From Clostridiales bacterium (GTDB lineage Bacteria > Bacillota > Clostridia > Christensenellales > CAG-138), in assembly GCA_012517905.1 (NCBI GenBank), contig JAAYUE010000083.1, forward strand, positions 9,070 to 73,069: a stretch of DNA of 64,000 nt, in the 5' to 3' direction. Each line of letters starts with the position of its first letter. The stretch's first letter is position 1. The notes under the pieces are model-generated. The model ran no database searches, was not told the origin of the DNA, and worked only from the letters and a program-made list of their open reading frames with translations. Shown here piece after piece: positions 5,323-37,171 of this stretch. The translations under genes were made by a program, and so were the position numbers.

Positions 5323-5444
5323 CACAGATTCCGATCTGTGGGAACGGCCGGCACAAAGCGCCGTCAGAAAAATTCCGCTGCGTCTATCGCCGCGCTTGAT
5401 ATGAAGAAAACCACCCCACGGGGTGCAAGGAAGGTTTAACAACA

Positions 5445-7544: not shown

Positions 7545-7545
7545 C

Positions 7546-10283: not shown

Positions 10284-11777
10284 ATGAAAAAAATGTTATG
10301 GCTGATCCTGATTCTGCTCCTGCTCGCGGCGGGCACGGCCTGCTTTGCGCTTCGAGCGCGGCAAAGCGCGCAGTCCGGCAAAACCGTTTCGGAGGTCACG
10401 CTGTACGACGCGCCGTCCACGCTGTCCCCCAGTAAAACCGCGAAGCTGTTTGTCAACGGAGCGGAGAGCTTTGTCTACAGCGTCTTTGTCAATCCCGGGC
10501 GGGAAAACAAGGGCAACTATGACGTAAGCTCCGTCTCCCGCGCGCCGATGGCGTATTTCGATCTGGTCGCAGGCGCGGCCAGAATCGACATCGAACTGAC
10601 GGATCAAAGCTCCTTTCCCGAACTGACGTCGGCGACGGTATCCCCGCTTGGCAAAGGCATCGAGGTTCAGATCGAAGGGCGGCATGCGCGCTTTTCCATC
10701 GCGGAACCGGGACAGTACATCGTGCAGTTCAACGGCACCGCCAGAGAAGCGTTCCATCTGTTTGTGAACGCGCCGGAGGAAGCCCTGCCCGACAAAACCA
10801 ACCCGAACGTGCTCTGGATCGAGCCGGGCGAGTGGACCATTCCGGACGGGATTCAGCTCAAAAGCGGGCAGACGCTCTATCTCTCCCCCGGCGCGGTGGT
10901 GCATACGACCGTGTCGGCCCAGTTTGGCAGCAACATCAAAATCCGCGGCCGGGGCATGATCGACGGCGGCATCTGGGAGAGCTGGAAAGGACAGGACGCG
11001 CACATTCCGATCGATTTCCGGTATTGCTCGGACGTCTATGTGGAAGGCGTCATTCTCAACAACTCCAACGCCTGGTGCTTCAACGCCTTTGAAACGGAAC
11101 ACGCGCTGGTGGAAAACGTAAAGATCATCTCCGCGCGTCCCAACGGCGACGGCTTCACCCTGCAAAGCTGCCGCGATTTCACGGTGCAAAACAGCTTTGC
11201 CCGGACCTGGGACGACTCGCTCGTCGTGAAAAACTACGGGCAGAACACGGAGGGAATCACCTTCCGCCATATGATCCTCTGGACGGATCTGGCGCAAAGC
11301 ATGGAGGTCGGCTACGAAACCAACAAGGGACAACAGGAAAACTCCAAAATCAGCGACGTATTGTTTCAGGATATCACCGTCGTCAACGCCTTTCACAAAC
11401 CGGTTATGTCCATCCACAACGCGGACGACGCGCTGGTGGAGCACATCGTCTGGGAAACCATCGTCGTGGAAAATGCGGACCTGGGCAACGGGGACGCCAA
11501 GGACAACAAGCAGCTGATCGATCTGACCATCGCCGGCAGCGGCTGGAGCTCTACAAAAACCCGCGGCCGGATTCAGGACGTGCAATTCAAAGACATCACG
11601 GTTTTGCAGGGGCTGGAGCATCAGGAAATCCGACTGATGGGGTTTGACGAAACCCACGCCATCGACGGCGTCACCCTTCAGAACCTGACCGTCTACGGCA
11701 CGCCGGTCACCTCTTTGGAGGACCTGCAGGCGACCATCCAGTTTGCCCGAAATGTGGAAGTGAGGTGGGAAGAATGA
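10284..11777 (+). CDS. Membrane-anchored right-handed beta-helix glycosidase-like protein (GH28/GH49-like)
   Basis: N-terminal TM/signal anchor MKKMLWLILILLLLAAGTA. Beta-helix-type repeat with ARPNGDGFTLQSCRDFTVQNSFARTWDDSLVVKN (NxDG...DD pattern). Confidence 0.62.
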   Translation: MKKMLWLILILLLLAAGTACFALRARQSAQSGKTVSEVTLYDAPSTLSPSKTAKLFVNGAESFVYSVFVNPGRENKGNYDVSSVSRAPMAYFDLVAGAARIDIELTDQSSFPELTSATVSPLGKGIEVQIEGRHARFSIAEPGQYIVQFNGTAREAFHLFVNAPEEALPDKTNPNVLWIEPGEWTIPDGIQLKSGQTLYLSPGAVVHTTVSAQFGSNIKIRGRGMIDGGIWESWKGQDAHIPIDFRYCSDVYVEGVILNNSNAWCFNAFETEHALVENVKIISARPNGDGFTLQSCRDFTVQNSFARTWDDSLVVKNYGQNTEGITFRHMILWTDLAQSMEVGYETNKGQQENSKISDVLFQDITVVNAFHKPVMSIHNADDALVEHIVWETIVVENADLGNGDAKDNKQLIDLTIAGSGWSSTKTRGRIQDVQFKDITVLQGLEHQEIRLMGFDETHAIDGVTLQNLTVYGTPVTSLEDLQATIQFARNVEVRWEE

Positions 11778-21670: not shown

Positions 21671-23422
21671 ATGGAAAGAAAAAAAGTACTTGTGATTGCG
21701 CCGTATGCGGGACTGAAAGAGTTGGTGTCGTCCATCGCGGGGGAGTTCGCGAACTATGAGATACAGGCCGTTCAGGGAAACCTTGAAAACGCCTTGCCCT
21801 ATGTAAAACGCGCGGAACTCGAGGGCGTCTCTATCATTCTTTCGAGAGGCGGCACCGCAAAGCAGCTGGCGAAGCACACCTCGATCCCCGTTCTGAATAT
21901 TCCAGTCTCCGGCTACGATGTTTTGCGATCCATATCGCTTGCAAAAACATTCTACGGAAAGCGGGCGGTCGTGGGATTTGAGTCGATTACACACGGATAC
22001 CAGGCCGTCAACACGCTTTTGGACACGGACATGGAGATCGTTACGATCAACGAGGAAGACGAACTGCCGGCCGTGCTGGACTACATGAAAAGCAAAGGCG
22101 TACGGCTGATCATCGGCGACGTGGTTACCGTAGACTACGCAAAAAAGAAGAATTTTGTCGGCGTATTGGTTACGTCCGGCGAGGAGAGCGTGCGCGACGC
22201 GCTCGAACAGGTCGGATTTCTGGAAAGCCATATCGGATACTATAAAAAGCGCGCTGAATTACTCGAGCAGGCTTTGAACCGCGAACCCAATCGGGAAACG
22301 CTCATCTTTTCGGATCAGGGCGACCTTCTGTTTCAGACGGCATCCCTCGACGAAACGCTTGCCAACGCGCTGAAATCCCGGATGGCGGACCCGGGATTTC
22401 TGGCCCGCTTCCCGGATTATCTGCCCGACTCGAAGGGGCAGGTCTTCGCGGTGACGGCTCAGACCTGGCATCAAAACGGGACAACGGCTACAATATTTAC
22501 CGCACAAGAGATTCAAACCCGGTATCAGGGCATCCGGATCCGGCCCCTGTCCGAGTTTGGCACCCTGTCTTACAACCTCTTTATGAACAACGATCCGGAC
22601 AGCATGAATGCAATATCGCTTGCGGAGTCGTTGTCGAAGACCAATCGCTCGGTCTTGATTCAGGGCGAACCCGGCGTCGGGAAAGACTGGTTCGGCATTC
22701 TGATGCATCTGAACACGGCCGGCATGGAGTCCGGGCTGATGATTCTGGACTGCTCTCTGCTGACGAAAGAAGATATCGATCATCTCTTCGTGCATTACGC
22801 TCTGCCGGATTCGCACAAAAGAACGCCGGTCCTGCTCAACCATCTGGACATGCTGAGCAAACACGGGCAGGCGGAGCTTTTGTCCTATTCGAGCCGGTTT
22901 GAGCAGTTTCGGTTTGTAGCCACATCGAGAAAGAGCATCACGGCGATGGGCGAGGAAGGAAGTTTTCTGAAAGAGCTGATTTCCGCTTTCGAATTTTCCG
23001 CAATCTATCTCCCGTCCGTACGGGAACATCAGGAAAACATAGAAAACCTGTGCAGCATCGCAATCAGCAGCGCAAATGAAAGCCTTGGAAAGCAGGTGGT
23101 CGCGCTGGAAAACGATGCGATGGAGTTGTGCAAAAATTACCGCTGGCCCGGCAATTTAAAGCAGATCTGCAGCGTAATGGAGGATGCGGTCCGGGTGACC
23201 GAGGCGTCTTTTATTTCAAAATCGACGGTCCAGTCCTTTATTTCGGAGGATAAGCAGACAAAGGACACCGTGATCTACATTTCCAAAAACAAGACGCTGG
23301 ACCAGTTTGAAAAGGAAATCATCCTCTCCGTTCTGCAGGACGAGGACATGAACCAGAGCAGGGCGGCCGACAGACTGGGGATCGGGCGCAGCACAATGTG
23401 GAGAAAGCTCAACCAGATTTAG
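21671..23422 (+). CDS. PrpR-N domain / AAA+ (sigma-54-interaction-like, degenerate) / Fis-HTH transcriptional regulator
   Basis: N-terminal KKVLVIAPYAGLKELV...ILSRGGTAKQL (PrpR_N-like). Walker A GEPGVGKD. YRWPGNLKQI. C-terminal HTH NQSRAADRLGIGRSTMWRKL. No GAFTGA loop visible. Confidence 0.85.
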   Translation: MERKKVLVIAPYAGLKELVSSIAGEFANYEIQAVQGNLENALPYVKRAELEGVSIILSRGGTAKQLAKHTSIPVLNIPVSGYDVLRSISLAKTFYGKRAVVGFESITHGYQAVNTLLDTDMEIVTINEEDELPAVLDYMKSKGVRLIIGDVVTVDYAKKKNFVGVLVTSGEESVRDALEQVGFLESHIGYYKKRAELLEQALNREPNRETLIFSDQGDLLFQTASLDETLANALKSRMADPGFLARFPDYLPDSKGQVFAVTAQTWHQNGTTATIFTAQEIQTRYQGIRIRPLSEFGTLSYNLFMNNDPDSMNAISLAESLSKTNRSVLIQGEPGVGKDWFGILMHLNTAGMESGLMILDCSLLTKEDIDHLFVHYALPDSHKRTPVLLNHLDMLSKHGQAELLSYSSRFEQFRFVATSRKSITAMGEEGSFLKELISAFEFSAIYLPSVREHQENIENLCSIAISSANESLGKQVVALENDAMELCKNYRWPGNLKQICSVMEDAVRVTEASFISKSTVQSFISEDKQTKDTVIYISKNKTLDQFEKEIILSVLQDEDMNQSRAADRLGIGRSTMWRKLNQI

Positions 23423-23807: not shown

Positions 23808-24872
23808 ATGAAAAAAGTGTTATCAATGTTGCTGGTGCTTGCTTTAGCCCTTTCGGTGGTCGGATGCACCGCTGCCGAAGTAAGCAGCACGGGCACGGAA
23901 TCTGCGACCGCCACAGAACCCGCCGCAACGGAAGCCGCCGCTCCAGCTGCTGATTCCGGAAAGGTGTACGATCTGAAGCTGTCCCTGGTGCAGTCCGCAA
24001 ACGAGCCGTTTGGCGAACTGGTCGAGATTCTGAAAAGCAGGATCGAAGAGTACACGAACGGTCGAGTCAAGTGCGAAGTGTACTACAACGGCGAACTGGG
24101 CGATAACGTAGACACCTGCGAGGCGATTCTCCAGGGCGCCAATATCGTTACGTTCCCGACGTTCGACTTCTATGCCCCTTACATTCTGGATGTTTCCATT
24201 CTGGACGGCCCCTTCTTCTTCCAGTCTCCGGATGAGCTGGCAAAGCTGGAAGCGTCCGACTGGTGGGCCGAGCAGGTCCAGAAGATGGAAGACATCAACC
24301 TCTGGTATGGCGGCGCAATGTACCTGGGCGCGCGCAGCCTCCTTCACAACGTGCCGGGCGCAAAGCTTCCCGAGGATTTCAAGGGTCAGGTCATGCGCTC
24401 CGCCTCCACGACCATGCGGCATGCGATGTGCGAAGCCATCACCGGCAACGTCGCGACCATTGCCTGGTCCGAAATCTACTCGGCGCTGAGCACCGGCGTC
24501 GCCGAAATGTGCGAAGCCCCGCTGGGCTCCATCGTGAGCACAAAGATCTATGAGGTCTGCCGGTATATTACCCTTGACGAGCACATCTACGCATTCCAGG
24601 CGCCCTGGATCGCCAAATCCTGGGTCGACGCATTGCCCGCGGATGTCCGCGAGGGCTTTGAGAGAGCCGTAAAAGAAACGTGCGCGGAATCGGTCGACTA
24701 CATCAATCAGAGCGAAGCGGAATACAGAGCGCTCCTGGAGAGCGAAGGCGTCACCTTTATCGAAGTGGATGATAAGGACGCCTGGGTCGAGGCGACCAAA
24801 TCCGCATACGACTCGATTCAGTGGGAAGAGCCCGATCTGTATCAGAAGTGCCAGGCGATCCTGGGCCGCTGA
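23808..24872 (+). CDS. dctP: TRAP transporter substrate-binding lipoprotein (DctP family)
   Basis: Track ORF trimmed to ATG 23808 after GAGGAGGAG. Lipobox VVGC. Followed by DctQ and DctM genes. Confidence 0.87.
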   Translation: MKKVLSMLLVLALALSVVGCTAAEVSSTGTESATATEPAATEAAAPAADSGKVYDLKLSLVQSANEPFGELVEILKSRIEEYTNGRVKCEVYYNGELGDNVDTCEAILQGANIVTFPTFDFYAPYILDVSILDGPFFFQSPDELAKLEASDWWAEQVQKMEDINLWYGGAMYLGARSLLHNVPGAKLPEDFKGQVMRSASTTMRHAMCEAITGNVATIAWSEIYSALSTGVAEMCEAPLGSIVSTKIYEVCRYITLDEHIYAFQAPWIAKSWVDALPADVREGFERAVKETCAESVDYINQSEAEYRALLESEGVTFIEVDDKDAWVEATKSAYDSIQWEEPDLYQKCQAILGR

Positions 24873-25025: not shown

Positions 25026-25532
25026 ATGAAAGATCTTGATGCAAAGATTACGAAGGGGATCGAAACGCTGCTTTCAACCATCGGCATATTCTGCCTGATC
25101 GCAATGATTTTCTGCATTACGACAAACGTGCTGATGCGCGCCGTCTTCGGAAAATCGATTGCATGGTCGGAAGAATACGGGTACTTATTCTTCTGTTATG
25201 CCGTGTATGTCGGAACCGCCTTCTGCTACAAGCAAGGGGAGTTGATCTCCATCAACTCCGTCGTGCTGCTGCTGCCCAAAGCAGTTCAAAAGGGGATTTT
25301 CTATTTTGATCGGTTTCTGCTTACGGCAGTCAACATATATCTGTTGATTCTTTCCGTGAAATTCACGATGAACGCCGCAACGAAAATGTCGCCGCTCATG
25401 CGGATTCCTTATTCCTATATCGACGCGTGCCTTGTCGTCATGTTTACCTTTATCGTCCTCTTCTCATTCAGGGATTTAATCCGTGCCATATTGAAGCTGG
25501 ACGACATGGAAACCGAGCGCAGAGCGGAATAA
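25026..25532 (+). CDS. dctQ: TRAP transporter small permease (DctQ family)
   Basis: 168-aa protein with four hydrophobic segments, located between DctP and DctM. Confidence 0.85.
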   Translation: MKDLDAKITKGIETLLSTIGIFCLIAMIFCITTNVLMRAVFGKSIAWSEEYGYLFFCYAVYVGTAFCYKQGELISINSVVLLLPKAVQKGIFYFDRFLLTAVNIYLLILSVKFTMNAATKMSPLMRIPYSYIDACLVVMFTFIVLFSFRDLIRAILKLDDMETERRAE

Positions 25533-25550: not shown

Positions 25551-26828
25551 ATGAATTTCTGGCCGTTAATTTTAGTGGTCGTACTGGTTTTGATCAACGT
25601 TCCCGTATCCTATGCCCTGCTGATTTCTTCCGTGTTTTATTTCAGCGCATTCGATACGGGTCTGGACGTCGCTTTGATATTCCAGCGGCTGATCGCTCAG
25701 TGTCAATCGTTCGCGCTGTTGGCCGTTCCGTTTTTCGTGACGGCGGGCGTGATCATGGAGTATGCCGGAATCGGGAGACGGTTGATGGATTTCGTCGGGC
25801 TGTTCACCGGCAGAACCCGCGGCGGTTTGGCTCATGCAAACATATTGCTCAGCACATTCATGGGCGGATGTTCCGGCTCGGCAAACGCGGACGCCGCGAT
25901 GGAAGCGAAGATGCTGATTCCGCTCATGAAAGAGAGCGGCATCGACGTCGGCTTTTCGGCCGGCGTAACGGCGACTTCGGCCTGCATTACGCCCATCATT
26001 CCGCCGGGCATCGTTCTGATCATCTACGCCACCATTTCAGGCGTATCCGTCGGAGACATGTTCCTTGCCGGATATCTTCCGGGCGCACTGATGTGCATTG
26101 CGCTGATGATTACCGTATCCATCATTGCGAGAAAGCGCGGATACCCGCCCACCCGCGACAAATGGCCCAACTTTAAGGAGATCGTCCGGATTACAGGTTC
26201 GGCGGTCTGGGCGCTCGTGGTTCCTCTGGGGATTCTCATGGGGCTGCGCATGGGCGTGTTTACCCCGACGGAAGCCGGCGCGGTCGTCGTCGTATACTGT
26301 CTGCTCGTGGGGTTGTTTATCTACAGAGATTTAAAGCCGAAAATGCTGCCGCGCCTTTTCCTGGATTCGCTGCGCACAACCGCCAGCGTCATGTTCATCG
26401 TCGCCGGTGCGGCCGCTTTCAGCTATTACCTGAGCTGGGAACGAATCCCGCAGTTCATCTCCGAGATGCTCTTAGGGGTAACGACGAATAAATACGTCTT
26501 CCTGCTGATTGTCAACGTGTTTCTGCTGATTTGCGGCATGTTTCTGGAGTGCACCGCTGCGCAGATCATGGTCATCCCGCTGCTCGTGGGTGCGGCGCAG
26601 ACGCTCGGCATCAACCTCGTGCATTTCGGCATTCTGACCAGCATCAACATCGTCATCGGCGGATGCACGCCTCCCTTTGGAACCTATATGTTCACCGTTT
26701 GCGCCGCAAGCGGCACTTCGATTCCAAGGTATACGAAGGCGACATGGCCGTTGATACTCACGCTGATCATCGTATTGTTTTTAGTTTCGTATATACCGGG
26801 TATCTCATTGCTACTGCCGGGTCAATAG
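25551..26828 (+). CDS. dctM: TRAP transporter large permease (DctM family)
   Basis: 425-aa polytopic membrane protein. GGAGG RBS. Confidence 0.9.
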   Translation: MNFWPLILVVVLVLINVPVSYALLISSVFYFSAFDTGLDVALIFQRLIAQCQSFALLAVPFFVTAGVIMEYAGIGRRLMDFVGLFTGRTRGGLAHANILLSTFMGGCSGSANADAAMEAKMLIPLMKESGIDVGFSAGVTATSACITPIIPPGIVLIIYATISGVSVGDMFLAGYLPGALMCIALMITVSIIARKRGYPPTRDKWPNFKEIVRITGSAVWALVVPLGILMGLRMGVFTPTEAGAVVVVYCLLVGLFIYRDLKPKMLPRLFLDSLRTTASVMFIVAGAAAFSYYLSWERIPQFISEMLLGVTTNKYVFLLIVNVFLLICGMFLECTAAQIMVIPLLVGAAQTLGINLVHFGILTSINIVIGGCTPPFGTYMFTVCAASGTSIPRYTKATWPLILTLIIVLFLVSYIPGISLLLPGQ

Positions 26829-26841: not shown

Positions 26842-27768
26842 ATGTCGTCTCAAAGCAGCAATCAGATTCGCGGCCTGATTAGCGACATCCAGCGGTTTTC
26901 GATTCATGACGGGCCCGGCATCAGAACTACGGTCTTTCTGAAAGGCTGCCCTCTGGCCTGCTACTGGTGCCACAATCCGGAGACCCAGGCGGCGCATCCG
27001 CAAATCATGATCCACCGCAACCTGTGTATCCGCTGCGGAAACTGCGTGAACGCGTGTCCGGTCGGATGCATCCGGCTTGACGCGGACGGCGTACGGATCG
27101 ATCGAAGCAAATGCCTGCAATGCGGAGCCTGCGCGCGCGCTTGCCCGGCCGAGGCGCTGAAGCTCGACAGCCGGTGGATGACGCCCGCCGAAACGCTCAG
27201 CGTCCTCCGGGTGGACGCCTCCTTTTATCAGCAATCGGGCGGCGGGGTGACGTTTTCCGGCGGCGAGGCGCTGACGCAGATCGACTTTCTTCAGGAAACC
27301 CTCCGCCTTTGCAAAAGCGAAGGCTACCACACGACGGTGGATACTTCGGGTTACTGCGAGCAGGCAACCCTGGAAAGGATTTTGCCGTTTACGGACCTGT
27401 TTCTTTACGACCTGAAAGCCGGCGACGACGCGACGCATGTCCGCGGAACGGGGAAACACCTGCAGACCATCCACGATAATCTGCGGTTCCTCGTGCAAAA
27501 AGGAGCGGCCATCTATATCCGCATTCCGATCATCCCCGGGTTCAACGACAACGACGAGGAAATGGGCAAGATCGCGGCGTTTCTCACCCCGATGGCGAAT
27601 GCCATAGCGCGGGTCGAACTGCTTCCCTTTCACCGGCTGGGGATCGTCAAATACGAGGCGCTGGACCGCGCATACAAAGCCGCGGATCTCGCCCCGGTTT
27701 CGCAGGAGCGCATGCGTCGGCTTGCCAGGCCGTTTTACACGGCGTTTGATCAGGTTGAGATTGGGTGA
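26842..27768 (+). CDS. Glycyl-radical enzyme activating protein (radical SAM) with two auxiliary ferredoxin-type clusters
   Basis: GPGIRTTVFLKGCPLACYWCHNPE contains the CX3CX2C motif. Auxiliary cluster motifs CIRCGNCVNACP and CLQCGACARACP. Confidence 0.92.
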   Translation: MSSQSSNQIRGLISDIQRFSIHDGPGIRTTVFLKGCPLACYWCHNPETQAAHPQIMIHRNLCIRCGNCVNACPVGCIRLDADGVRIDRSKCLQCGACARACPAEALKLDSRWMTPAETLSVLRVDASFYQQSGGGVTFSGGEALTQIDFLQETLRLCKSEGYHTTVDTSGYCEQATLERILPFTDLFLYDLKAGDDATHVRGTGKHLQTIHDNLRFLVQKGAAIYIRIPIIPGFNDNDEEMGKIAAFLTPMANAIARVELLPFHRLGIVKYEALDRAYKAADLAPVSQERMRRLARPFYTAFDQVEIG

Positions 27769-27794: not shown

Positions 27795-30071
27795 ATGTAT
27801 AGCAAGGTTCAGTTGCCTGTTCGTATCAAAGAACTTGAAGACGAACTGTATTCGATTCGGACGCAGACATGCTACGAGCGGGCCAAGATCATAACCGGCT
27901 CCTATCAGAAGACCGAGGGACTTCCCACGGTGTTGAGGCGCGGCCGCGCGTTTCAGGACATTTTAACGCAGATGCCCCTCTATATTCGCGAAAAGGAACT
28001 GATCGTCGGTTCGCGCAGCTCGCATCTGGGCTGGGAGACCAGCTATCCGGAGTACGATCTGGAGGACCACGACGCCTGGCCCGAGGAAGTCCGCGCATAC
28101 TGGACGGGAAAAACGATACACGACCTGAGCAATCAACTCTATCCCCCGATCGTCCCCATATCGGAAGCGGAACACGTCTCCGGGTATACCACGGGGACCA
28201 AGACCGGCATCGGGCACGGAATCGCCGCGTATGACAAGGTTCTGCGCATCGGTTTTCGGGGCATCCTTGAGGAACTGGATGCCGCGCTGCAAACGGCGGG
28301 CGACGACCAAAGCGGCGTCGATTTTCTCAATGCGGCAAAAAGCGCCTGCACCGGAATGATCGCCTGGGCAAACCGATATGCGGATTTGGCCGAGAATCTG
28401 GCAAAAACGGCGAACGCCGCGCGCGCAAAGGAACTCGCCGACATCGCCGCCGTGTGCCGGCACGTGCCGGAGCATCCCGCCCGCAGCTTCAGAGAGGCGC
28501 TTCAGAGCTTTTGGTTCGTCCATGTCGCGCTGCACATCGAGCAGAAGGGCTGGTCGATTTCCACCGGGCGGTTCGACCAGTACATGTATCCATACTATCG
28601 GGCGGACATCGAAAAAGGTTTGATCACCGACGGGGAAGCGTTTGAACTGCTCCTGAATCTCTGGGTCAAATTCATGGAGAATATCGAAGGCGAGCTGAAA
28701 AAAACGCAGTTTCAAAACCTGACGCTCGGCGGACAGGATCAGGCCGGAAACGATCTTTCGAATGCGTTTTCCCACATGTGTCTGGATGCGACGATGCTGA
28801 CGGGCTATACGCAGCCGGCGCTGTCCGTTCGCTGGCACAGCGCCGTCGACCACGACTTCTGGGCGCATGCGATGCGCACGATCGCGACCGGGGTGGGAAT
28901 GCCCGCGCTGTTCAACGACGAAATCATCATGAAAGAGCTGGAGGCGCACGGCACCTCCGCAGACGACACGTGGAATTACGCCGTTGTCGGCTGTGTGGAA
29001 CCGGCCATCCCCGGAAAACAGATGGGGATGACCGCCGGCGGACATGTAAATGTCGCAAAAGCGCTGGAGCTGGCGTTGTTCAACGGGCGCTCGCTCTTCA
29101 CGGGCGTGCAGATGGGCCCCGCCACCGGCGAAGCGGCCGCGTTTTCCTCATTTGATCAGCTCTGGGAGGCATATGAAAAGCAGTCGCGCTATCTGATGGC
29201 GGTGACGCTGCTGACGGGCAATGTGGCGGGGACGGTGCAAAAGCTGCTGGGCCATTGCCCGATGCACTCCTGCCTGCTGGACGATTGCATTGCCAGAAGG
29301 CGCGATATGGTCGACGGCGGCGTTCGATACAGCCTTTCCGGGACGGCGGTGATTGGAACGCCCGACGCCTGCGACGGGCTGCTTGCGATCAAAAAGCTGG
29401 TATTTGAAGAAAAAAGATACACCCTGCAGCAGATCTGCCGGGCGATGGAAGCCAACTTCGAGGGTTATGAGGAGATGCGGCAAATCCTGCTGCATCAACC
29501 CTGCCGCTTCGGAAACGACATTCCGGAAGCGGATGAAATGGCAAACAAGGTCAACCGCGTCCATTCGGAGTTCTGCGTCGCGCATCCGGACATGCGCGGC
29601 GGGCACTATACCTGCGGAATCTGGCCCGTCAACGATCACGTCGCCGCCGGAAAATTCACCGCCGCGCTGCCCGACGGCCGGCACAAAGGCGCGCCTCTGG
29701 CCGACGGCGTGGGCGCCTGCCACGGCGCAGACGTCAACGGCCCGACCGCGCTGCTCAAATCCGTGGCGCGGCTGAACAACGTTCGCGATTGGCAGGGCGG
29801 AAACACCTGCAACATCAAGTTTTCGAAGATGAGCATCCATTCCCCGAAGGGAATCGAAACGATGGGCGATTTGGCGGAGACTTTCATGAAGCTGGGCGGG
29901 CAGGAACTGCAGATTAACGTCGTAGACGCAGCGACGCTCCACAAGGCGCAGGAGAATCCCGAGGAGTACGCCAATCTGGTCGTTCGCGTCGCAGGGTACA
30001 GCGCGTATTTTGTCACCCTGAGCAGGAGCATACAAGACGAGGTAATCGCGCGCACGGAGCAGGCGATTTGA
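27795..30071 (+). CDS. Glycyl radical enzyme, 1,2-eliminase-type active-site signature, 758 aa, substrate unknown
   Basis: C-terminal glycyl radical motif VVRVAGYSAYF (Gly734). Thiyl loop VVGCVEPAIPG has Cys400 and Glu402 and no Cys-Cys pair. AAGGAGGAG RBS. Confidence 0.92.
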   Translation: MYSKVQLPVRIKELEDELYSIRTQTCYERAKIITGSYQKTEGLPTVLRRGRAFQDILTQMPLYIREKELIVGSRSSHLGWETSYPEYDLEDHDAWPEEVRAYWTGKTIHDLSNQLYPPIVPISEAEHVSGYTTGTKTGIGHGIAAYDKVLRIGFRGILEELDAALQTAGDDQSGVDFLNAAKSACTGMIAWANRYADLAENLAKTANAARAKELADIAAVCRHVPEHPARSFREALQSFWFVHVALHIEQKGWSISTGRFDQYMYPYYRADIEKGLITDGEAFELLLNLWVKFMENIEGELKKTQFQNLTLGGQDQAGNDLSNAFSHMCLDATMLTGYTQPALSVRWHSAVDHDFWAHAMRTIATGVGMPALFNDEIIMKELEAHGTSADDTWNYAVVGCVEPAIPGKQMGMTAGGHVNVAKALELALFNGRSLFTGVQMGPATGEAAAFSSFDQLWEAYEKQSRYLMAVTLLTGNVAGTVQKLLGHCPMHSCLLDDCIARRRDMVDGGVRYSLSGTAVIGTPDACDGLLAIKKLVFEEKRYTLQQICRAMEANFEGYEEMRQILLHQPCRFGNDIPEADEMANKVNRVHSEFCVAHPDMRGGHYTCGIWPVNDHVAAGKFTAALPDGRHKGAPLADGVGACHGADVNGPTALLKSVARLNNVRDWQGGNTCNIKFSKMSIHSPKGIETMGDLAETFMKLGGQELQINVVDAATLHKAQENPEEYANLVVRVAGYSAYFVTLSRSIQDEVIARTEQAI

Positions 30072-30127: not shown

Positions 30128-31159
30128 ATGAGAAAAGTGATCGCAATCAGCATGGGAGACCCCGCGGGAATCGGCGGCGAGATCGTCGTCAAAGCGCTCA
30201 TGCAAAAAGAAATCTATGACAAGTGCGTCCCTGTCGTCGTGGGCGACTACGAAGCCATCCGCGACGCCAACGAGTTCTGCCATGCAAATCTGAAGATCAA
30301 TCGAATTTCGGAGGTGTCCGAGGCAGTCGGGGAAGCGGGAACGATCGACTTGATCGACATGGGGTTTCTCGCCCCGAACAGCTGGAAATACAAGCAGGTG
30401 CAAAAGCTCTGCGGAGAAGCGTCTTTCCGGTATGTGGAAAAGGTCATACAACTGGCCTTGAGCAATCAGGTGGACGCCACCGTCACCGGCCCCATCAATA
30501 AGGAGGCCATCAATCTGGCGGGGCACCACTATTCCGGCCATACCGAAATCTACGCCGACCTTACCCACACCAAGGATTACGGCATGCTGCTCATCAGCGA
30601 GCATCTTCGCGTCATTCACGTCTCCACGCACGTATCCATGCGCCAGGCCTGCGATTCCATCACGACGGAACGCGTACACGCCGTCATCAAGCTGGCGGAT
30701 TCCGGCATGCGGTCCCTGGGATTCGAGCACCCGAAAATCGGCGTCTCCGGATTCAACGCGCATTGCTCGGAAAACGGGCTGTTCGGAAACGAGGAAGCCC
30801 GCGCGATCATCCCCGCCATCGAGCAGGCGAAGCGGGAGGGGATCGACTGCGACGGGCCGGTTCCTCCGGATACCGTGTTTGTCAAATGTCTGGCGGGCCA
30901 GTATGACGTCGTAGTGGCCATGTATCACGACCAGGGGCATATCCCGCTGAAGTTGGACGGATTCAAGCTGGACCTGAACACGAACAAATATACCTCCATG
31001 AGCGGCGTGAACTGCACCATCGGTCTTCCGATCATCCGGACGTCCGTGGATCACGGCACGGCGTTCGGAAAAGCCGGAGAAGGAAGAGCGAACGCGCAAT
31101 CGCTGATCGACGCGATCGACACGGCGATATTGATGGCAAATAACAAATCAAGGAGATAA
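30128..31159 (+). CDS. PdxA-family NAD(P)-dependent 4-phospho-hydroxyacid dehydrogenase (PdxA2-like)
   Basis: MGDPAGIGGEI, YSGHTEIYA and AMYHDQGHIPLK motifs. Confidence 0.88.
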   Translation: MRKVIAISMGDPAGIGGEIVVKALMQKEIYDKCVPVVVGDYEAIRDANEFCHANLKINRISEVSEAVGEAGTIDLIDMGFLAPNSWKYKQVQKLCGEASFRYVEKVIQLALSNQVDATVTGPINKEAINLAGHHYSGHTEIYADLTHTKDYGMLLISEHLRVIHVSTHVSMRQACDSITTERVHAVIKLADSGMRSLGFEHPKIGVSGFNAHCSENGLFGNEEARAIIPAIEQAKREGIDCDGPVPPDTVFVKCLAGQYDVVVAMYHDQGHIPLKLDGFKLDLNTNKYTSMSGVNCTIGLPIIRTSVDHGTAFGKAGEGRANAQSLIDAIDTAILMANNKSRR

Positions 31160-31164
31160 AAACA

Positions 31165-32226
31165 ATGGAACGGAAAACGATGAAAGGCGTCCTGAAAAGC
31201 CTGCCGCAGGAAGGCGCAGAATACCGCGAAGACCTGCCGATTCCGGAAGTGGGCCCGCGGGATATTCTGGTAAAAGTGCAGGCGGCGGCGATCTGCGGCA
31301 CCGATCAGCACATCATCAACTGGACCGAGTATGCAAAGCAGCGCCTCACGCTCCCCATGGTGTTTGGGCATGAGTTCGCGGGCGACGTGGTCGCCGTCGG
31401 AAGCGACGTACACGAGCTGAGCGTGGGCGACCGCGTTGCGGGAGAGACCCATATCCCCTGCAACCACTGCTACATGTGCAAGACAAACCGGCGGCATAAC
31501 TGCGCAAATATGAAGATCATCGGCGTGCATGCTCCCGGCGCTTTTGCCGAATACATCTCCTTTCCGGCGGACTGCGCCTACAAGCTCGACGACGATATCA
31601 GCTATGAAATCGGGGCGATGCTGGAACCGATGGGCGTCGCCGTGCACGGCGTATCCGCGGGCGAGGTGAAAGGCTGCAATGTGCTGATCTTCGGCTGCGG
31701 GCCGATCGGCTTGATGGCCGTCGGCGCCGCCAGGGCGATGGGCGCGAAAAAGATCTTCGCCGCGGACGTTTTCGACGCAAAGCTCGAAATCGCAAAGGTG
31801 ATGGGCGCGGATGCCGTGCTGAACACCCGGGCGATGAGCGCGGACGAAGCCCGCGCAAAGCTGCTGGAATACACCGACGGCATGGGCGCGGACGTCGTGA
31901 TCGACTACACGGGAAACGCCGCCGCCCTTCAGCAGGGGTTTGGCATGCTTCGGAAAAACGGAACGTTCATCATGGTCGGACTGCCGGACAAGCCGATTGC
32001 GCTGGACTTGACGGACGCCATCGTCTATAAGGAGGCGACCGTAAAGGGCGTTACCGGAAGGCTGATGTACGAAACATGGGACGAATGCATCGATATCCTG
32101 AAAAACAGCGAGTTTTCGATGGAGCCGGTCACCGGCGGCGTCTATCCGCTTTCAAACTATATGGACGCTTTCAACGCGATCTTTTCCGGCGTCCCCGGAA
32201 AAATGCTCCTGATCCCCGGAAAATAA
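31165..32226 (+). CDS. Zn-dependent alcohol dehydrogenase, L-threonine-3-dehydrogenase-like
   Basis: AAICGTDQHIINW, GHEFAGDVVAVG, structural-Zn segment CNHCYMCKTNRRHNC, and GRLMYETW as in the Tdh family. AAGGAG RBS. Confidence 0.85.
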   Translation: MERKTMKGVLKSLPQEGAEYREDLPIPEVGPRDILVKVQAAAICGTDQHIINWTEYAKQRLTLPMVFGHEFAGDVVAVGSDVHELSVGDRVAGETHIPCNHCYMCKTNRRHNCANMKIIGVHAPGAFAEYISFPADCAYKLDDDISYEIGAMLEPMGVAVHGVSAGEVKGCNVLIFGCGPIGLMAVGAARAMGAKKIFAADVFDAKLEIAKVMGADAVLNTRAMSADEARAKLLEYTDGMGADVVIDYTGNAAALQQGFGMLRKNGTFIMVGLPDKPIALDLTDAIVYKEATVKGVTGRLMYETWDECIDILKNSEFSMEPVTGGVYPLSNYMDAFNAIFSGVPGKMLLIPGK

Positions 32227-32261: not shown

Positions 32262-33290
32262 ATGAGTAATATGATGCGTACGGCAATGGTTACGAAGCCA
32301 TTCACTGTCGAGATCGTTGAAAAGCCCGTCCCCAAATACGGGCCGGACGATGTGTTGATCAAGGTAAAGGTCGCCGGCGTGTGCGGGTCCGATCTGCAGC
32401 TGTACAGGGGGACCCACCCGTTCCGGCAGCCGCCGGCGGTGTTGGGCCATGAAGTGGCGGGCGACGTGATCGCCGTGGGGAGCAACGTTACGAAGCTGCA
32501 GGTCGGCAACAGGGTCGCCGTGCTTCCGCACATCGAGTGCGGAACGTGCGAGTTCTGCCAAGCGGACATGCAGAATCTCTGCGTCAACAAAACCGTTCCC
32601 GGAACGCCCAAGTGGGAAGGCACTTTTGCGGAGTATTTCTCCGCGCCCGAAGCAAAGACCTACAAAATCGCAGACGGCGTGAGTTACGAAATGGGCGCTT
32701 TGGTGGAGCCGCTTGCCGTAGCCGTGCACGCCGTCAGCCGCGTGTTATCCGACAAAAGAGGGTCCATCGCGATCCTCGGCTGCGGCACGATCGGACTGCT
32801 GACCTTGATGGTGGCAAAAGAATTCGGATACAAGAGGATTTACTGCACCGACACCGCGCCCTTCAACAACGAAATGGCGTTGAAGTGCGGGGCGAACATG
32901 GCGCTGAATCCGCTGGAAACAGACGCGGTGGAAGCCTTCCTGAAGGACAACGGCGGCGGCATGGACGTTACATTTGTCGCGGCCGGAAGCCCCGACATCA
33001 TCAACCATGCGTCGCGGCTGACCAAGCGTCTGGGTGAAATCGTGCTGATCTCCATGATCACCAAGGATATTCCGGTCTACACCTACGGCTTTGTGTACAA
33101 CGAGCAGACCCTGCGGGGGGCGATGACCTATCGCAATGCGGACTATGAGAAGGCCATGGAGCTGATCAACGGCGGGCTGGACCTCTCCATGTTCGTAACG
33201 CAAAACCTGCCTCTCTCGGAGGCGGGGTCCGCTCTGGAGATGCTGAACAACAAAAGCGGCGACATCATCAAAATAATGATCAACATGTAG
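32262..33290 (+). CDS. Zn-dependent alcohol/polyol dehydrogenase (sorbitol-dehydrogenase-like)
   Basis: Track ORF 32076..33290 trimmed to ATG 32262. GVCGSDLQLYRG, GHEVAGDVIAVG, CGTCEFCQADMQNLC, and Rossmann segment ILGCGTIG. Confidence 0.85.
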   Translation: MSNMMRTAMVTKPFTVEIVEKPVPKYGPDDVLIKVKVAGVCGSDLQLYRGTHPFRQPPAVLGHEVAGDVIAVGSNVTKLQVGNRVAVLPHIECGTCEFCQADMQNLCVNKTVPGTPKWEGTFAEYFSAPEAKTYKIADGVSYEMGALVEPLAVAVHAVSRVLSDKRGSIAILGCGTIGLLTLMVAKEFGYKRIYCTDTAPFNNEMALKCGANMALNPLETDAVEAFLKDNGGGMDVTFVAAGSPDIINHASRLTKRLGEIVLISMITKDIPVYTYGFVYNEQTLRGAMTYRNADYEKAMELINGGLDLSMFVTQNLPLSEAGSALEMLNNKSGDIIKIMINM

Positions 33291-33304: not shown

Positions 33305-34594
33305 ATGATAAAACTTGTTGTAATTGCAGATGACTTTACGGGGGCGCTTGATACGGCGGTTCAATTTGCCAAGCGTGGAATCAAAACGCTTGTTACGGCT
33401 GACGCGACCGTAGATTTGGCTTCTTTCGACGAAGAAATCGAGGTCCTGACAATCGATATTGAAAGTCGGCATTTGAATAGTGAAGCAGCTTACGCCCGGG
33501 TGCAAAATACGGTTGCATTCGCAATGAGTTTATCGCCTCAGTGCATCTATCTCAAGACGGATTCCACGCTGAGGGGCCCGATCGGCGCAGAGTTCGCTGC
33601 GCTGTTGGACGAGACGAAGTCCGGAGCGCTGATGTTCATTCCGGCGTTTCCCAAGAATGGGCGCACGACAAAGAACGGCATTCAGTATGTCGACGGCATT
33701 CCCCTGTCCGACACGATTTTTGCAAACGACCACATCAACCCCGTCGTTGTCAGCCGGGTCAAGGCCGTCATCTCCAGCGGAACGAACAAGAAGGTGGTCG
33801 AAGTCCCCTTTTCGGAGAAGCATACGGAGATATCCCTGGAGGGAAGCCCGGACGGCGTAATCTATGTGTTCGACGCGGAAACGGACGAGCACCTGAGCAA
33901 GATCGGCGAAAACCTGTTCCGGCAGGGAAAATGCGGCGTGCTGTCGGGCTGCGCGGGATTTGCCGAGATCCTTCCCGACATATTCGAGCTCAGACAGCAT
34001 CCCATCGAACGATCGAAGACCCCGGGCAACGTCCTCATCGTGGTCGGAAGCGCAAACCAGATCTCCCTGCAGCAGATTTCGCTCGGAGAACTGTATGGGT
34101 TCGAGCTGTATTCCCTGTCTCCCGAGGAGAAAATCGGCACGACGGAGGAATGCGACGCCAAGCGGACGGCTCTGCTGAACAAAGCGAAGGAATCCTTGAT
34201 GGACAGTGGCAAGGTCATCGTCGCAACTTTGACCAGCAAGGACGACATCGACATCACCAACACGTATGGCGAGCAGGTCGGCATTCCCGCCGACCAAATC
34301 CCGGCGCTGACCGCCAACAACATCGCCTCCATCACCAAAGAACTCATCGGCAACGTGCCGATTGACAACCTGGTGATATTTGGCGGCGACACCCTGATGG
34401 CGATCATGGACGCGATTGCCTGCAAAGGGATCATCCCCTATGAGGAAATCGCCCCGGGCGTCGTAGCATCCAAAATACTGGGCGACAAGAACAATTTCAC
34501 GCTGGTCACAAAGGCCGGCAGCTTCGGCGAAAAGGACATCATCAGCAAGATATACCATTATCTTCAGAGCAGCGAGAATCCGTATCCGGCATGA
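33305..34594 (+). CDS. Four-carbon acid-sugar kinase family protein (DUF1537; OtnK/DtnK-like)
   Basis: N-terminal VVIADDFTGALDTAVQFAKRG hallmark. 429 aa, two-domain size typical of the family. Confidence 0.85.
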   Translation: MIKLVVIADDFTGALDTAVQFAKRGIKTLVTADATVDLASFDEEIEVLTIDIESRHLNSEAAYARVQNTVAFAMSLSPQCIYLKTDSTLRGPIGAEFAALLDETKSGALMFIPAFPKNGRTTKNGIQYVDGIPLSDTIFANDHINPVVVSRVKAVISSGTNKKVVEVPFSEKHTEISLEGSPDGVIYVFDAETDEHLSKIGENLFRQGKCGVLSGCAGFAEILPDIFELRQHPIERSKTPGNVLIVVGSANQISLQQISLGELYGFELYSLSPEEKIGTTEECDAKRTALLNKAKESLMDSGKVIVATLTSKDDIDITNTYGEQVGIPADQIPALTANNIASITKELIGNVPIDNLVIFGGDTLMAIMDAIACKGIIPYEEIAPGVVASKILGDKNNFTLVTKAGSFGEKDIISKIYHYLQSSENPYPA

Positions 34595-34634
34595 GCAAGG
34601 CTCCATCCGGGGGCCCGCCCGCGGCAAAGCAACG

Positions 34635-34672
34635 AAACGACGAGACCACCCGTTCGGGTGGTCTCGTCGTTT
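34635..34672. terminator. Strong bidirectional terminator between convergent genes
   Basis: AAACGACGAGACCACCC-gttc-GGGTGGTCTCGTCGTTT, a perfect 17-bp stem. Confidence 0.85.
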
Positions 34673-34680
34673 CAGGTCGT

Positions 34681-35817
34681 CTATTTCCTCTGCCCCGTTG
34701 CCGAGAGCAATCGAAACAGGTTTTCCACGGTCAGTCGATAGTCCTTCTTGCTGCGCAATCTCGCCTCGCTGAAGGGAATGGCAAGTTGGTTGGTGCTGAA
34801 GATGGCCGTGATGCCCTCAGCATATGCCTCCTCGATGTCGTCCCCGACATCGCCCACGACCGCGAGCACGGGGATGCCGGCGCGCTTGGCCCTGCGCGCG
34901 ACGCCGATGACCACCTTGCCGCGCAGGCTCTGGCTGTCCAGCTTTCCTTCACCGGTGATCACGAGGTCCGCGTCGCTGATGCGCGCCTCGAAGCACACCG
35001 TGTCCAGCACCGCCTCGATGCCCGGCTGCAGACGCGCGCCGAAAAACGCCACCATGCCCGCGCCCATCGCGCCCGCGGCGCCCGCGCCCGGCAGGTCCGC
35101 GACCCGCAGGCCGAGTTCGCGCGAAATCGCCTCGTCCAGCGCGCGCAACTGCGCGTCCAACTCTCGCACCAGCTCCGCGTCCGCTCCTTTTTGCGGGCCG
35201 AACACATGCGCCGCGCCGCGCGGGCCGTGCATGGGATTGTCGATGTCGCACATGGCGACGACCTCGATCCCCTGCAGCAGGCGCAGCGCTTCCGAATTGT
35301 CGATACGCGCAATTCTCGAAAGCGTCCCGCCCGTCGGAACGAATTCCTTCCCGCTTTCGTCCAAAAACTTCGTCCCCATCGCCGCCGCCGCGCCGCAGCC
35401 GCCGTCGTTCGTCGCGCTGCCGCCGAGACCTAAAATAATCTTCTTCGCGCCGTGTTCCAGTGCGTGCCGGATCAGTTCGCCAACGCCATAGGTCGTCGTG
35501 CGGGCCGGGTCTTTCTCGTCCCCTACCAGCGGCAGCCCCGCCGCCGCGGCCATCTCGACGACGGCCGTGTCGCCAAACCGGCCATAAAACGAAGAGAGTC
35601 GCTCAAACAGCGGCCCCGCCGCCTCGACCTGCACCTTTTCGCCGTCCAGACACTCCAGAAAGCTATCCACCGTACCTTCCCCGCCGTCCGCAACCGGCAG
35701 GCCGACGACTTCGCAGGCCGGAAAAAACCGCCTCGCCTCCTCGGTCACGATGGCGCAGATTTCGCTCGAGGTAATCGAGCCTTTGAACGAGTCGGACACG
35801 ACGGCAATCTTCTTCAT
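34681..35817 (-). CDS. glxK: Glycerate kinase (GlxK/GarK family)
   Basis: DSFKGS, GLGGSATNDGGCG and ITGEGKLDSQSLRGKV motifs. Confidence 0.9.
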   Translation of the reverse strand: MKKIAVVSDSFKGSITSSEICAIVTEEARRFFPACEVVGLPVADGGEGTVDSFLECLDGEKVQVEAAGPLFERLSSFYGRFGDTAVVEMAAAAGLPLVGDEKDPARTTTYGVGELIRHALEHGAKKIILGLGGSATNDGGCGAAAAMGTKFLDESGKEFVPTGGTLSRIARIDNSEALRLLQGIEVVAMCDIDNPMHGPRGAAHVFGPQKGADAELVRELDAQLRALDEAISRELGLRVADLPGAGAAGAMGAGMVAFFGARLQPGIEAVLDTVCFEARISDADLVITGEGKLDSQSLRGKVVIGVARRAKRAGIPVLAVVGDVGDDIEEAYAEGITAIFSTNQLAIPFSEARLRSKKDYRLTVENLFRLLSATGQRK

Positions 35818-36049: not shown

Positions 36050-37171
36050 ATGCAGGTGGTCGCAGTGCGCGGCAGACAACAGATGCGCGATTTTGTGCGC
36101 GTTCCGCAGCAAATCTTCGGCAAACATCCGTGCTATGTGCCGCCGATCTGGATGGACGAGGCGCACGCATACTCGGACAAGGCGAACCCCATCCTGAAAA
36201 ACTCGGATTTTGAACTGTTTCTCGCGCTGGACGACGCGGGCAGGCCCGTCGGGCGCACCATCGCGTATATCGACCATACGTTCAACCGCTTTTACAACGC
36301 GCGCATGGGCTTTTTCGGCGCGTTTGAGTGCATAGACGATCCGGCGGCGGCTGGGCTTCTCATCGGCGCGGCGGAGGATTGGCTCGCCGCGCGCGGCATG
36401 GACGCCGTTCGCGGCCCGATCCACCCCGTTGCGGAAAACTGGGGGTTCGTCTTCGAAGGGTACGACAGCCCGCCCGTCTACATGTCCCCTTGGAACCCGG
36501 CGTATTACCATCCGTTTTTCACCGGCGCCGGCTACGGCAAGGCAAAGGATCTGCTCGTGTACGAGGCGGATATGGCCAAGGGCTACGAAATTCCCCGGCG
36601 GTACGACGACTTCCCCGCGCGGTTTATGACGCGCTATCCGGGCGTCTCCATCCGCCGCCTCGACATGAAGCGCATCCACGACGATGCGCGCGCCATCTGG
36701 GAGATCTCCAACACCTCTCTGGCGGACAACTGGGGATACGTTCCGCTCGAACTGCCCGTCATGGAGGACATGCTCAAAAAACTCCGCATGATCGTCGATC
36801 CCGACGCGGTCTGGATGGTGGAAAACGAAGGAAAACCCGTCGGCTTCTGCCTCGGGTTTCCGGACATCAACATCCTGCTCAAGCGCATCGGCGGGCATAT
36901 GCTGCCGCTCGGCTGGGCGCGGCTGCTGCTCGGCGTGAAACAACTGCGGGACTACCGGCTCTTCGGCCTCGCCGTCACGCCGGAGTGGCACAAGCGCGCG
37001 CTCGACGCGCTCATGTACATCCACCTCTATCAGAACCTGAAGGCAAAGCGCATCCGCATGGAGGCAAACTATATTTTAGAGGACAATCTGCACATCAAAA
37101 ACGCCCTCGAGCGCCTCGGCATGCGGCACACGAAGACCTATCGCATCTACGAAAAACCGCTTGCGCAATGA
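36050..37171 (+). CDS. Uncharacterised GNAT-fold acyltransferase-like protein
   Basis: GAGGAGG RBS. Pattern FVRVPQQIF...PCYVPPIWMDE...GRTIAYID...MGFFGAFECIDD resembles a roughly 370-aa GNAT-like family that I recall only from annotation, so the assignment is tentative. Confidence 0.5.
   Translation: MQVVAVRGRQQMRDFVRVPQQIFGKHPCYVPPIWMDEAHAYSDKANPILKNSDFELFLALDDAGRPVGRTIAYIDHTFNRFYNARMGFFGAFECIDDPAAAGLLIGAAEDWLAARGMDAVRGPIHPVAENWGFVFEGYDSPPVYMSPWNPAYYHPFFTGAGYGKAKDLLVYEADMAKGYEIPRRYDDFPARFMTRYPGVSIRRLDMKRIHDDARAIWEISNTSLADNWGYVPLELPVMEDMLKKLRMIVDPDAVWMVENEGKPVGFCLGFPDINILLKRIGGHMLPLGWARLLLGVKQLRDYRLFGLAVTPEWHKRALDALMYIHLYQNLKAKRIRMEANYILEDNLHIKNALERLGMRHTKTYRIYEKPLAQ

Follow-up and report, generated by a model that had tools for sequence, protein, structure and literature searches.

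Gene Organization and Catalytic Motifs

The 64,000-nucleotide stretch of contig JAAYUE010000083.1 from a Clostridiales bacterium (assembly GCA_012517905.1, positions 9,070 to 73,069 of the forward strand), referred to below as the window, contains the gene of a compact glycyl radical enzyme (GRE), preceded by the gene of a GRE-activating enzyme and embedded in an operon of acid-sugar type. The protein has an intact catalytic apparatus, belongs to a clade of similarly compact GREs, differs in its pocket from the characterised enzymes of the family, and is the only clade member found in such an operon. The features that define the enzyme and its activase are the following.

27795..30071, + strand: GRE of the compact Cys-x-Glu (CXE) clade, 758 aa, stop-free translation
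28983..29003, + strand: Cys loop V-V-G-C400-V-E402-P (residues 397–403), containing the Cys of the thiyl radical and the catalytic Glu
29985..30002, + strand: glycyl radical motif R-V-A-G734-Y-S (residues 731–736), recognised by motif and by Pfam Gly_radical
26842..27768, + strand: GRE-activating radical S-adenosylmethionine (SAM) enzyme, with a CX3CX2C motif and two CX2CX2CX3C motifs, TIGR02494

The ATG of the GRE gene is preceded by a GGAGG ribosome-binding site. Cys400 is encoded by TGT (28992-28994), Glu402 by GAA (28998-29000), and Gly734 by GGG (29994-29996), with a spacing of 334 residues between Cys400 and Gly734. The frame, both motifs, their codon positions, and the spacing had been given in a preliminary description of the sequence, and all of them were reproduced from the translation. 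The Pfam matches to the PFL-like domain (PF02901, E=2.4e-172) and to Gly_radical (PF01228, E=1.2e-25) indicate that the motifs are not due to chance and that the gene is real; an RVxG[FYW]-type C-terminal motif, a PFL-like barrel, and an adjacent activase together place the protein in the GRE superfamily. The activase gene ends 26 nt upstream of the GRE gene. Its product carries the motif C36-x3-C40-x2-C43 and, in CIRCGNCVNACP and CLQCGACARACP, the two CX2CX2CX3C motifs, reaches 341 bits with TIGR02494 against a cut-off of 174, and contains the Pfam domains Radical_SAM and two Fer4, which agrees with the two extra ferredoxin-type clusters that had been assigned to it earlier.

The Cys loop holds one catalytic Cys with Glu at the +2 position, as expected of the CXE class. 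In HMMER alignments with solved structures, C400/E402 coincide exactly with C433/E435 of glycerol dehydratase (GD), C438/E440 of propanediol dehydratase (PD), C462/E464 of HpsG, and the Cys/Glu pair of CutC, so that the position of E402 over the catalytic Glu, which the preliminary description had put forward as a test, is borne out at the level of sequence alignment. Both residues are invariant in the clade described below (120/120 members among the matches listed). Pyruvate formate-lyase was considered as an identity and rejected: PflB has the adjacent Cys pair C418/C419, whereas the GCVE loop has a lone Cys, and TIGR01255 gives 115 bits against a cut-off of 994. The earlier exclusion of C–C cleavage of the pyruvate formate-lyase type is thus upheld.

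In every characterised eliminase the CXE motif is kept, with the Glu hydrogen-bonded to the substrate (Imrich et al., 2026). The same motif is, however, found in the ring-opening GRE isomerases HplG, YbiW, and PflD as well, and since these release no leaving group, CXE alone does not predict net elimination. What it predicts is hydroxyl-assisted heterolytic cleavage beside the radical carbon, not necessarily accompanied by the release of a leaving group. The original equation of CXE with elimination therefore holds for the eliminase-type chemistry and had overlooked the isomerase option. As judged from its sequence, the protein is predicted to be a functional CXE-type enzyme, a 1,2-eliminase or an isomerase.

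Internal Deletions Responsible for the Compact Size

The length of 758 aa had been ascribed to a shorter N terminus. The protein is indeed compact, but the N terminus is not truncated, with residue 14 corresponding to residue 16 of GD and residue 9 to residue 13 of PD, and the shortening is located in two internal gaps of ~21 and ~9 residues. Compared to GD, 29 residues are missing, 20 of them in a single gap after residue ~88 and 7 around residues 294–305, as counted over alignment blocks. The sites are as follows.

28056..28082, + strand: site of the clade-specific deletion of ~21 residues (after position 90), where other GREs have W-L-x-x-E-L-D...F-x-I-S-E-E
28680..28706, + strand: shortened β2–β3 connector, ~9 residues fewer (after position 297), from the alignment

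When the compact clade was aligned with PflD and YbiW of E. coli, with one PD-type enzyme, and with three further GREs, both deletions proved to be confined to it; the first gap is seen in the alignments with GD and PD as well. In GD, PD, CutC, and HypD, the β2–β3 connector contributes a residue to the active site (F333, F338, F389, and S334, respectively). In the window protein the position of GD F333, PD F338, and HypD S334 is taken by E300, a residue that is variable across the clade and whose alignment is uncertain in this gapped region. The compact length is not unprecedented, since the CXE enzyme PflD of E. coli is 765 aa long, yet it retains both segments.

The Active-Site Pocket and the Leaving Group

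The segments that line the predicted pocket, and the residues that replace those of GD, are listed below.

28200..28229, + strand: β1 segment K136-T-G-I-G-H141-G-I-A-A145, with the catalytic-site His141 and substitutions found only in the window copy
28551..28556, + strand: W253-S254 of the clade motif GWS(I/V)S; GD, PD, and 9rco have H-S (H281-S282 in GD)
29031..29045, + strand: T413-A414-G-G-H417, aligned in place of GD H446-D447-S-A-F450
29616..29639, + strand: β8 strand G608-I-W610-P-V612-N-D-H615, replacing G638, Y640, and S642 of GD and R672, V674, and I676 of HpsG
GD H281: W253
GD S282: S254 (kept)
GD Y339: F306 (as in PD)
GD D447: A414
GD F450: H417 (position of CutC Y506)
GD Y640: W610
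GD S642: V612 (as in PD)

His141 aligns with GD H164, HpsG Q187, and the CutC Asp, and it does not vary among the clade members in the matches listed (120/120). The common β1 site is occupied by Gln193 in IslA, Asp216 in CutC, and His160 in HypD, and His164 has been proposed to be the acid in GD. As in the C–O dehydratases of the GD, PD, and HypD type, the β1 site holds a His, and an oxygen leaving group is therefore favoured by the sequence over release of an amine or of sulfite. The preliminary description had allowed OH, amine, or sulfite; His141 supports the first of them, and the other two are disfavoured, as the β1 residue is neither Asp nor Gln and the Arg/Gln/Arg sulfonate triad of HpsG (R183, Q187, R672) is not kept, its positions being occupied by K136, H141, and G608.

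The remaining pocket appears unlike that of any characterised enzyme. W253, A414, and W610 replace H281, D447, and Y640, which are conserved in GD, PD, and 9rco, and this sets the protein apart from GD and PD. The clade has lost the Asp of GD and PD (A414 here) and has acquired an invariant His, H417, 17 residues after the Cys. Differences from GD, PD, HpsG, and CutC alike speak against the residue-for-residue match to a known enzyme that had been named in advance as a ground for withdrawing the assignment. H615, as well as C607, C642, and C672, are clade-specific and near-invariant. The three Cys codons lie at 29613-29615, 29718-29720, and 29808-29810, and GD has Pro, Pro, and Phe at these positions.

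A Clade of Compact, Uncharacterised Enzymes

The database entry identical to the GRE is a hypothetical protein of a Clostridiales metagenome-assembled genome. Identity to its 119 best relatives is 51-62%; these are mostly 753-765 aa long, and none of them bears a functional name; with the window protein, the clade comprises at least 120 sequences. It is marked by the signatures GWS(I/V)S, T(A/S)GGH, and WPVxxH, and all of these, together with both deletions, are present in the window protein, which thus is, by its sequence, not a one-off but a member of an uncharacterised clade. The taxonomic spread covers Clostridia, Chloroflexia, a delta-proteobacterium, and Poribacteria.

Genomic contexts were collected in two ways. 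Scanning of genome contigs with a generic GRFDQY pattern returned mostly PD-type microcompartment loci, with the clade accounting for 5/80, and a clade-specific DNA pattern applied to metagenome contigs gave 36 loci. These 36 and 11 long loci, 47 in total, were clustered by their neighbours. The activase adjoins the clade GRE in ~10/35 informative loci, and no other conserved neighbour was found in the clustering of the 47 loci; since the activase is the only one, no single substrate follows from guilt by association. Recurrent neighbours include oxidoreductases (aldo-keto reductase, Fe-dependent alcohol dehydrogenase (ADH), Zn-dependent ADH, and the GFO family), glycoside hydrolases (GH95, seen twice, GH78, GH35, GH31, GH38, GH2, apiosidase-like, and melibiase), and sugar ATP-binding cassette (ABC) transporters. 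Such contexts fit a sugar-derived substrate, with either the substrate or the product handled by a dehydrogenase.

In three clade loci (L089:6658-8054, L110:3254-4650, and L115:2187-3739), genes of the URO-D family and genes with a TrmO_N domain are located directly 3' of the GRE.

Changes Peculiar to the Window Copy

The window protein deviates at 10 of the 320 positions that are at least 95% conserved in the other 119 members, compared to a clade median of 2.5. Four of the ten deviations (I139, G142, A144, and A145) flank H141, yielding GIGHGIAAY vs. the consensus GFGHVIVDY, and a rough estimate puts the chance probability of such clustering at about 1-2%. Around H141, no other clade member diverges as strongly. 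Additionally, K136 occurs in none of the other 119 members listed, which have A, D, S, G, or N there. This residue aligns with the loop that contains HpsG R183, IslA R189, and HypD R156, which contact or stabilise the anionic group of the respective substrates, and the corresponding column holds an Arg in another GRE clade, unrelated to this one, whose genes adjoin those of tripartite ATP-independent periplasmic (TRAP) transporters (loci L009 and L013). The strand around His141 thus shows signs of retuning in the window copy, as far as its sequence can indicate.

The unrelated clade just mentioned (L009:10001-12358 and L013:3207-5564) represents a second group of uncharacterised GREs, ~790-806 aa long, with the motifs GLAES, GWTNAAMFN, and RGGxYRPGLYP and an Arg at position -5 relative to the β1 His. 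Its genes are flanked by those of an activase, a Zn-ADH, and TRAP DctM/DctP, and its members reach no NCBIfam equivalog cut-off.

The Operon and the Acid-Sugar Module

The genes run in the order PrpR_N regulator, DctP, DctQ, DctM, activase, GRE, PdxA-like, Zn-ADH, Zn-ADH, and DUF1537 kinase. The genes other than those of the GRE and the activase, and the end of the operon, are as follows.

21671..23422, + strand: PrpR_N-type regulator with a degenerate sigma-54 AAA+ domain and HTH_8, from Pfam
23808..24872, + strand: DctP TRAP solute-binding lipoprotein with the signal sequence MKKVLSMLLVLALALSVVGC, Pfam DctP E=1.4e-47
25026..25532, + strand: DctQ TRAP small permease, Pfam DctQ E=1.1e-19
25551..26828, + strand: DctM TRAP large permease, Pfam DctM E=1.8e-108, TIGR00786 421 bits vs. 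268
30128..31159, + strand: PdxA2-type oxidative decarboxylase, like D-threonate/D-erythronate 4-phosphate dehydrogenase, from PDB matches and NCBIfam
31165..32226, + strand: ADH1, a Zn-dependent dehydrogenase resembling threonine 3-dehydrogenase, NF003808 359 bits vs. 380, PDB 3gfb E=9.6e-78
32262..33290, + strand: ADH2, a second Zn-dependent dehydrogenase, Pfam ADH_N and ADH_zinc_N
33305..34594, + strand: DUF1537 four-carbon acid-sugar kinase, Pfam SBD_N and NBD_C, with D-threonate kinase as the nearest model
34633..34674, no strand assigned: bidirectional intrinsic terminator with a 19-bp stem, marking the operon end and common to the convergent glycerate kinase gene

From dctQ through the kinase gene, neighbouring genes are separated by 5-56 nt, and no terminator-like site was found inside the operon, the GRE–pdxA2 gap included, before that at 34633-34674. 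The start codon and ribosome-binding site of dctP were confirmed. The PrpR_N-type gene is likely the regulator of the operon; no sigma-54 -24/-12 site was detected 5' of dctP in the promoter search, and the window-wide count of such sites is below chance. The sigma-54 interaction domain of the window regulator scores only faintly to weakly, whereas its orthologs in loci L126 and L130 score normally. The best solved relatives of DctP are binders of the DctP family without a named ligand (E=7.9e-29), compared to 1e-16 to 1e-14 for binders of 2,3-dihydroxypropane-1-sulfonate (DHPS) and isethionate. The PdxA2-like protein matches PdxA2 (2hi1, E=1.7e-90) and D-threonate-4-phosphate dehydrogenase (6e85, 1.7e-87) far better than true PdxA (~1e-50), and the DUF1537 kinase reaches 214 bits with the DtnK model NF047819, whose cut-off is 450.

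This arrangement of TRAP, PdxA2, two Zn-ADHs, and DUF1537 around a clade GRE occurs only in the window, and no PdxA, DUF1537, or TRAP genes were present at any other clade locus examined. The module itself recurs elsewhere with no GRE: L126 has the regulator, PdxA, both ADHs, and the kinase, L128 adds a CUT2 ABC transporter, and L130, of Desulfotomaculum nigrificans type, has a TRAP transporter; the same regulator architecture lies 5' of the module in all three. Identities to the L126 orthologs are 76% for PdxA, 71% for ADH1, 61% for ADH2, and 46% for the kinase, with the regulator 29% identical to those of GRE-less loci. Orthologs of ADH1, 63-71% identical, are found in the same module elsewhere and never with a GRE. 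Joint arrival of the TRAP transporter and the GRE was considered and rejected, since the L130 module already has the transporter without a GRE; the TRAP genes therefore belong to the acid-sugar module, and only the activase–GRE pair was added.

The conserved Firmicutes module (PrpR_N regulator, PdxA2-like protein, Tdh-like Zn-ADH, second Zn-ADH, and DUF1537 kinase) is thus accompanied by TRAP, by a CUT2 ABC transporter, or by no transporter, and it appears to be uncharacterised. Labels of "L-threonine 3-dehydrogenase" given to its members, for example in Desulfotomaculum nigrificans, are probably misnomers, because those proteins sit in an acid-sugar module. Known routes for four-carbon acid sugars employ Ltn2D/DenD, OtnI, OtnK, and OtnC, with no radical enzyme among them, and literature searches returned no GRE tied to tetronates, apiose, tetritols, O-methyl sugars, or, beyond sulfonate systems, TRAP transporters.

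Comparison with Characterised Glycyl Radical Enzymes

No NCBIfam equivalog cut-off was reached by the GRE in the NCBIfam scan. The scores, in bits against the respective cut-offs, are 526/1000 for HpsG (NF048011), 485.5/1100 for HypD (NF043068), 457/1109 for PflD/YbiW (NF007437), 456/1000 for HpfG, and 437.6/1050 for CutC (TIGR04394); the broad subfamily TIGR01774 was missed too (605.6 vs. 678.2). An AlphaFold2 model has a pLDDT of 87.6 and a pTM of 0.89, and a Foldseek search with it ranked PDs (9rco, 5i2g) and GD first, at a TM-score of 0.93 and 34-37% identity. Among solved structures, sequence searching likewise gave PD (E=4.6e-156) as the best match, with GD at 6.9e-142.

The similarity to PD (5i2a/5i2g from Roseburia inulinivorans, and 9rco) extends to the ten-stranded barrel, to the CXE loop, the β1 His, the Ser of the (H/W)-S pair, the Phe at GD Y339, and the Val at GD S642, as well as to an activase with two extra cluster motifs. 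Sequence identity is nevertheless limited to 35-37%, and the PD motifs GHSIS, GWHDAAFFN, and G(L/I)YPVSANV correspond to GWSIS, G(V/M)TAGGH, and G(I/V)WPVNxH in the clade. The Roseburia enzyme (5i2a) is 85 residues longer, a 49-residue insert included, PD lacks both clade deletions, and all of the recovered PD-like genome loci have an adjacent activase, unlike many clade members. GD from Clostridium butyricum (1r8w) has an aligned N terminus and residues C433, E435, H164, S282, and G763 equivalent to C400, E402, H141, S254, and G734, and the mechanism proposed below, with a Glu base and a His acid, is taken from it; it is 34% identical and differs by the six pocket substitutions listed above and by its 29 additional residues.

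HpsG (6lon) and HpfG share the CXE loop with the window protein, both act on a TRAP-imported anionic C3 diol, and the basic K136 lies in the loop holding the sulfonate-binding Arg183 of HpsG. They differ in the triad, in the scores, and in sulfur-metabolism neighbours, which are absent here; loss of the triad and the missed NF048011 cut-off set the protein apart from the isethionate and DHPS sulfite-lyases (IslA, IseG, and HpsG) in general. The choline TMA-lyase CutC is set apart by the His in place of D216 at the β1 site and by a score far under its cut-off. PflD and YbiW, which open the ring of 1,5-anhydro-hexitol-6-phosphate, share the CXE loop, the β1 His (GQGH in PflD, GDAH in YbiW), sugar-related contexts, and, in the case of E. 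coli PflD, the compact size, but they keep both segments deleted in the clade, their pocket motifs differ in the alignment with the E. coli enzymes, and the NF007437 score is too low. HypD (trans-4-hydroxy-L-proline dehydratase, 6vxc) resembles the window protein in its CXE loop, in H160 at the β1 site, and in a basic residue that precedes this His, R156 in HypD, where it assists with a carboxylate substrate. Residues specific to HypD are D278, S334, D339, Y450, and T645; the two proteins are 29% identical, and the score sets them apart.

Proposed Function and Alternative Explanations

The reading that we favour, to which we assign a probability of about 0.4, is that of a radical dehydratase adapted to a small carboxylate with a vicinal diol, for instance a tetronate. 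For the C–O cleavage, the acid substrate, and the role in the pathway, we infer the following scheme. The adjacent activase would place the radical on Gly734, from which it would pass to Cys400, and the thiyl would take a hydrogen from the hydroxyl-bearing carbon of the substrate. Glu402 would act as the base that deprotonates that hydroxyl, and His141 as the acid that protonates the vicinal oxygen leaving group, upon which the latter would depart; the resulting α-keto radical would regain a hydrogen from Cys400, yielding a deoxy-carbonyl product. The activase–GRE pair would have been inserted into a conserved acid-sugar operon, with a substrate imported by TRAP that may be a C4 acid sugar (threonate, erythronate) or a hydroxy-acid relative; glycerate and dihydroxybutanoates are also candidates. 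The GRE would then form a radical deoxygenation branch parallel to the kinase/PdxA2 route to triose phosphate, a branch that might serve as a redox sink, as in the fermentation of glycerol or DHPS.

Several observations weigh against this reading. Apart from K136, the pocket is rather hydrophobic (W253, F306, W610, V612, and A414) and contains no Arg, the equivalence of K136 is off by one position owing to unequal loop lengths (His-5 here vs. His-4 in HpsG, IslA, and HypD) and is uncertain to that extent, and the confidence of the AlphaFold2 model is lowest in the pocket loops (~70 for residues 131-140, ~68 for 411-420, and 57-81 for 601-670). The other 119 clade members are found in neutral-sugar or glycosidase contexts. 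No dedicated extra reductase for a side branch is present, both ADHs occurring in GRE-less modules as well. Finally, the products of GRE eliminases always contain a deoxy carbon. Direct feeding of the kinase/PdxA2 route to dihydroxyacetone phosphate by the GRE was rejected on this chemical ground, since such a product has no direct entry to that route.

The whole clade might instead consist of microcompartment-free dehydratases of a neutral diol (1,2-propanediol, glycerol, or ethylene glycol), disposing for example of propanediol derived from fucose or rhamnose, with the position of the window copy in the operon being incidental. We regard this as possible if doubtful. The closest solved relatives are PDs, F306 and V612 are the PD residues at GD Y339 and S642, the clade neighbours include GH95 fucosidase-type and GH78 rhamnosidase genes, FucU, and a fucose-isomerase-like gene with an FGGY kinase, and the Fe-ADH, aldo-keto reductase, and Zn-ADH found nearby could reduce the aldehyde product. 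However, the exchange of H281, D447, and Y640 for W253, A414, and W610 is clade-wide, segments close to the active site are missing or shortened by the two deletions, even TIGR01774 is missed, the activase is the only neighbour conserved across the clade loci, and the changes around H141 and the operon context are both unique to the window copy. The larger pocket suggested by the connector deletion, by the invariant W253 and W610, which would stack on a sugar ring, and by His417 and His615 could alternatively belong to a sugar-acting enzyme, either a C–O cleaving isomerase that opens a ring in the manner of YbiW/PflD or an ether eliminase that releases methanol from O-methylated plant sugars. 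CXE is common to YbiW, PflD, and HplG, many glycoside hydrolases and sugar ABC transporters adjoin the clade genes, and GH127 and GH28 genes are present in the window. Such a function is nonetheless unlikely, given that the similarity to PflD/YbiW is below that to PD and GD, that the NF007437 score falls short of its cut-off, that phosphosugar genes (phosphotransferase system, aldolase) are not consistently nearby, and that the literature search found no GRE eliminating methanol. At the level of the clade, the elimination of methanol or of a ring oxygen from unusual plant-wall sugars seems highly improbable.

A C–N or C–S lyase of the choline/amino-alcohol or sulfonate type is very unlikely as well. 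CutC, IslA, and HpsG share the CXE motif, TRAP transporters serve isethionate and DHPS elsewhere, and the HpsG model is the second-best NCBIfam match; on the other side stand the β1 His, which is neither the Asp of CutC nor the Gln of IslA and HpsG, the absent triad, the HpsG, HpfG, and CutC scores, the greater proximity of DctP to binders with unnamed ligands than to those of DHPS and isethionate, and the lack of genes for a sulfite reductase or exporter or for amine handling in the ~20-kb gene map around the GRE.

Returning to the carboxylate dehydratase, its most specific form, in which the enzyme would be the first GRE acting on a sugar acid and would deoxygenate a TRAP-imported C4 acid sugar within the PdxA2/DUF1537 module, is unlikely; if true, it would give strict anaerobes a new way of fermenting tetronates that derive from ascorbate or plants. 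GRE eliminases underlie the anaerobic formation of trimethylamine, H2S, and propanol, as well as the use of hydroxyproline, and are relevant to health and industry. Entire GRE clades remain unassigned according to a recent review (Imrich et al., 2026). The window copy is informative in this respect, being the only one located in a defined acid-sugar operon and having its changes concentrated beside the catalytic His, and its context turns a GRE of no assigned function into a short, testable list of substrates.

Other Genes of the Window

The glycerate kinase gene that converges on the operon (34681-35817, - strand) is absent from the orthologous modules elsewhere. The surroundings are saccharolytic: genes at 7546-9588 (+), 10284-11777 (+), 13663-16503 (-), and 37232-39268 (+) encode two GH65 phosphorylase-type proteins, a GH28-like protein, and a GH127 protein, one of the GH65-type proteins (946 aa) being fused to a HAD, β-phosphoglucomutase-like domain. 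Several sugar ABC systems, as well as LacI and AraC regulators, are also present. Three long open reading frames, at 36050-37171 (+, 373 aa), 5436-7547 (-, 703 aa), and 58789-60882 (+, 697 aa), lack a Pfam match. That at 36050-37171, for which NCBIfam gave no match either, is located between the glycerate kinase and GH127 genes.

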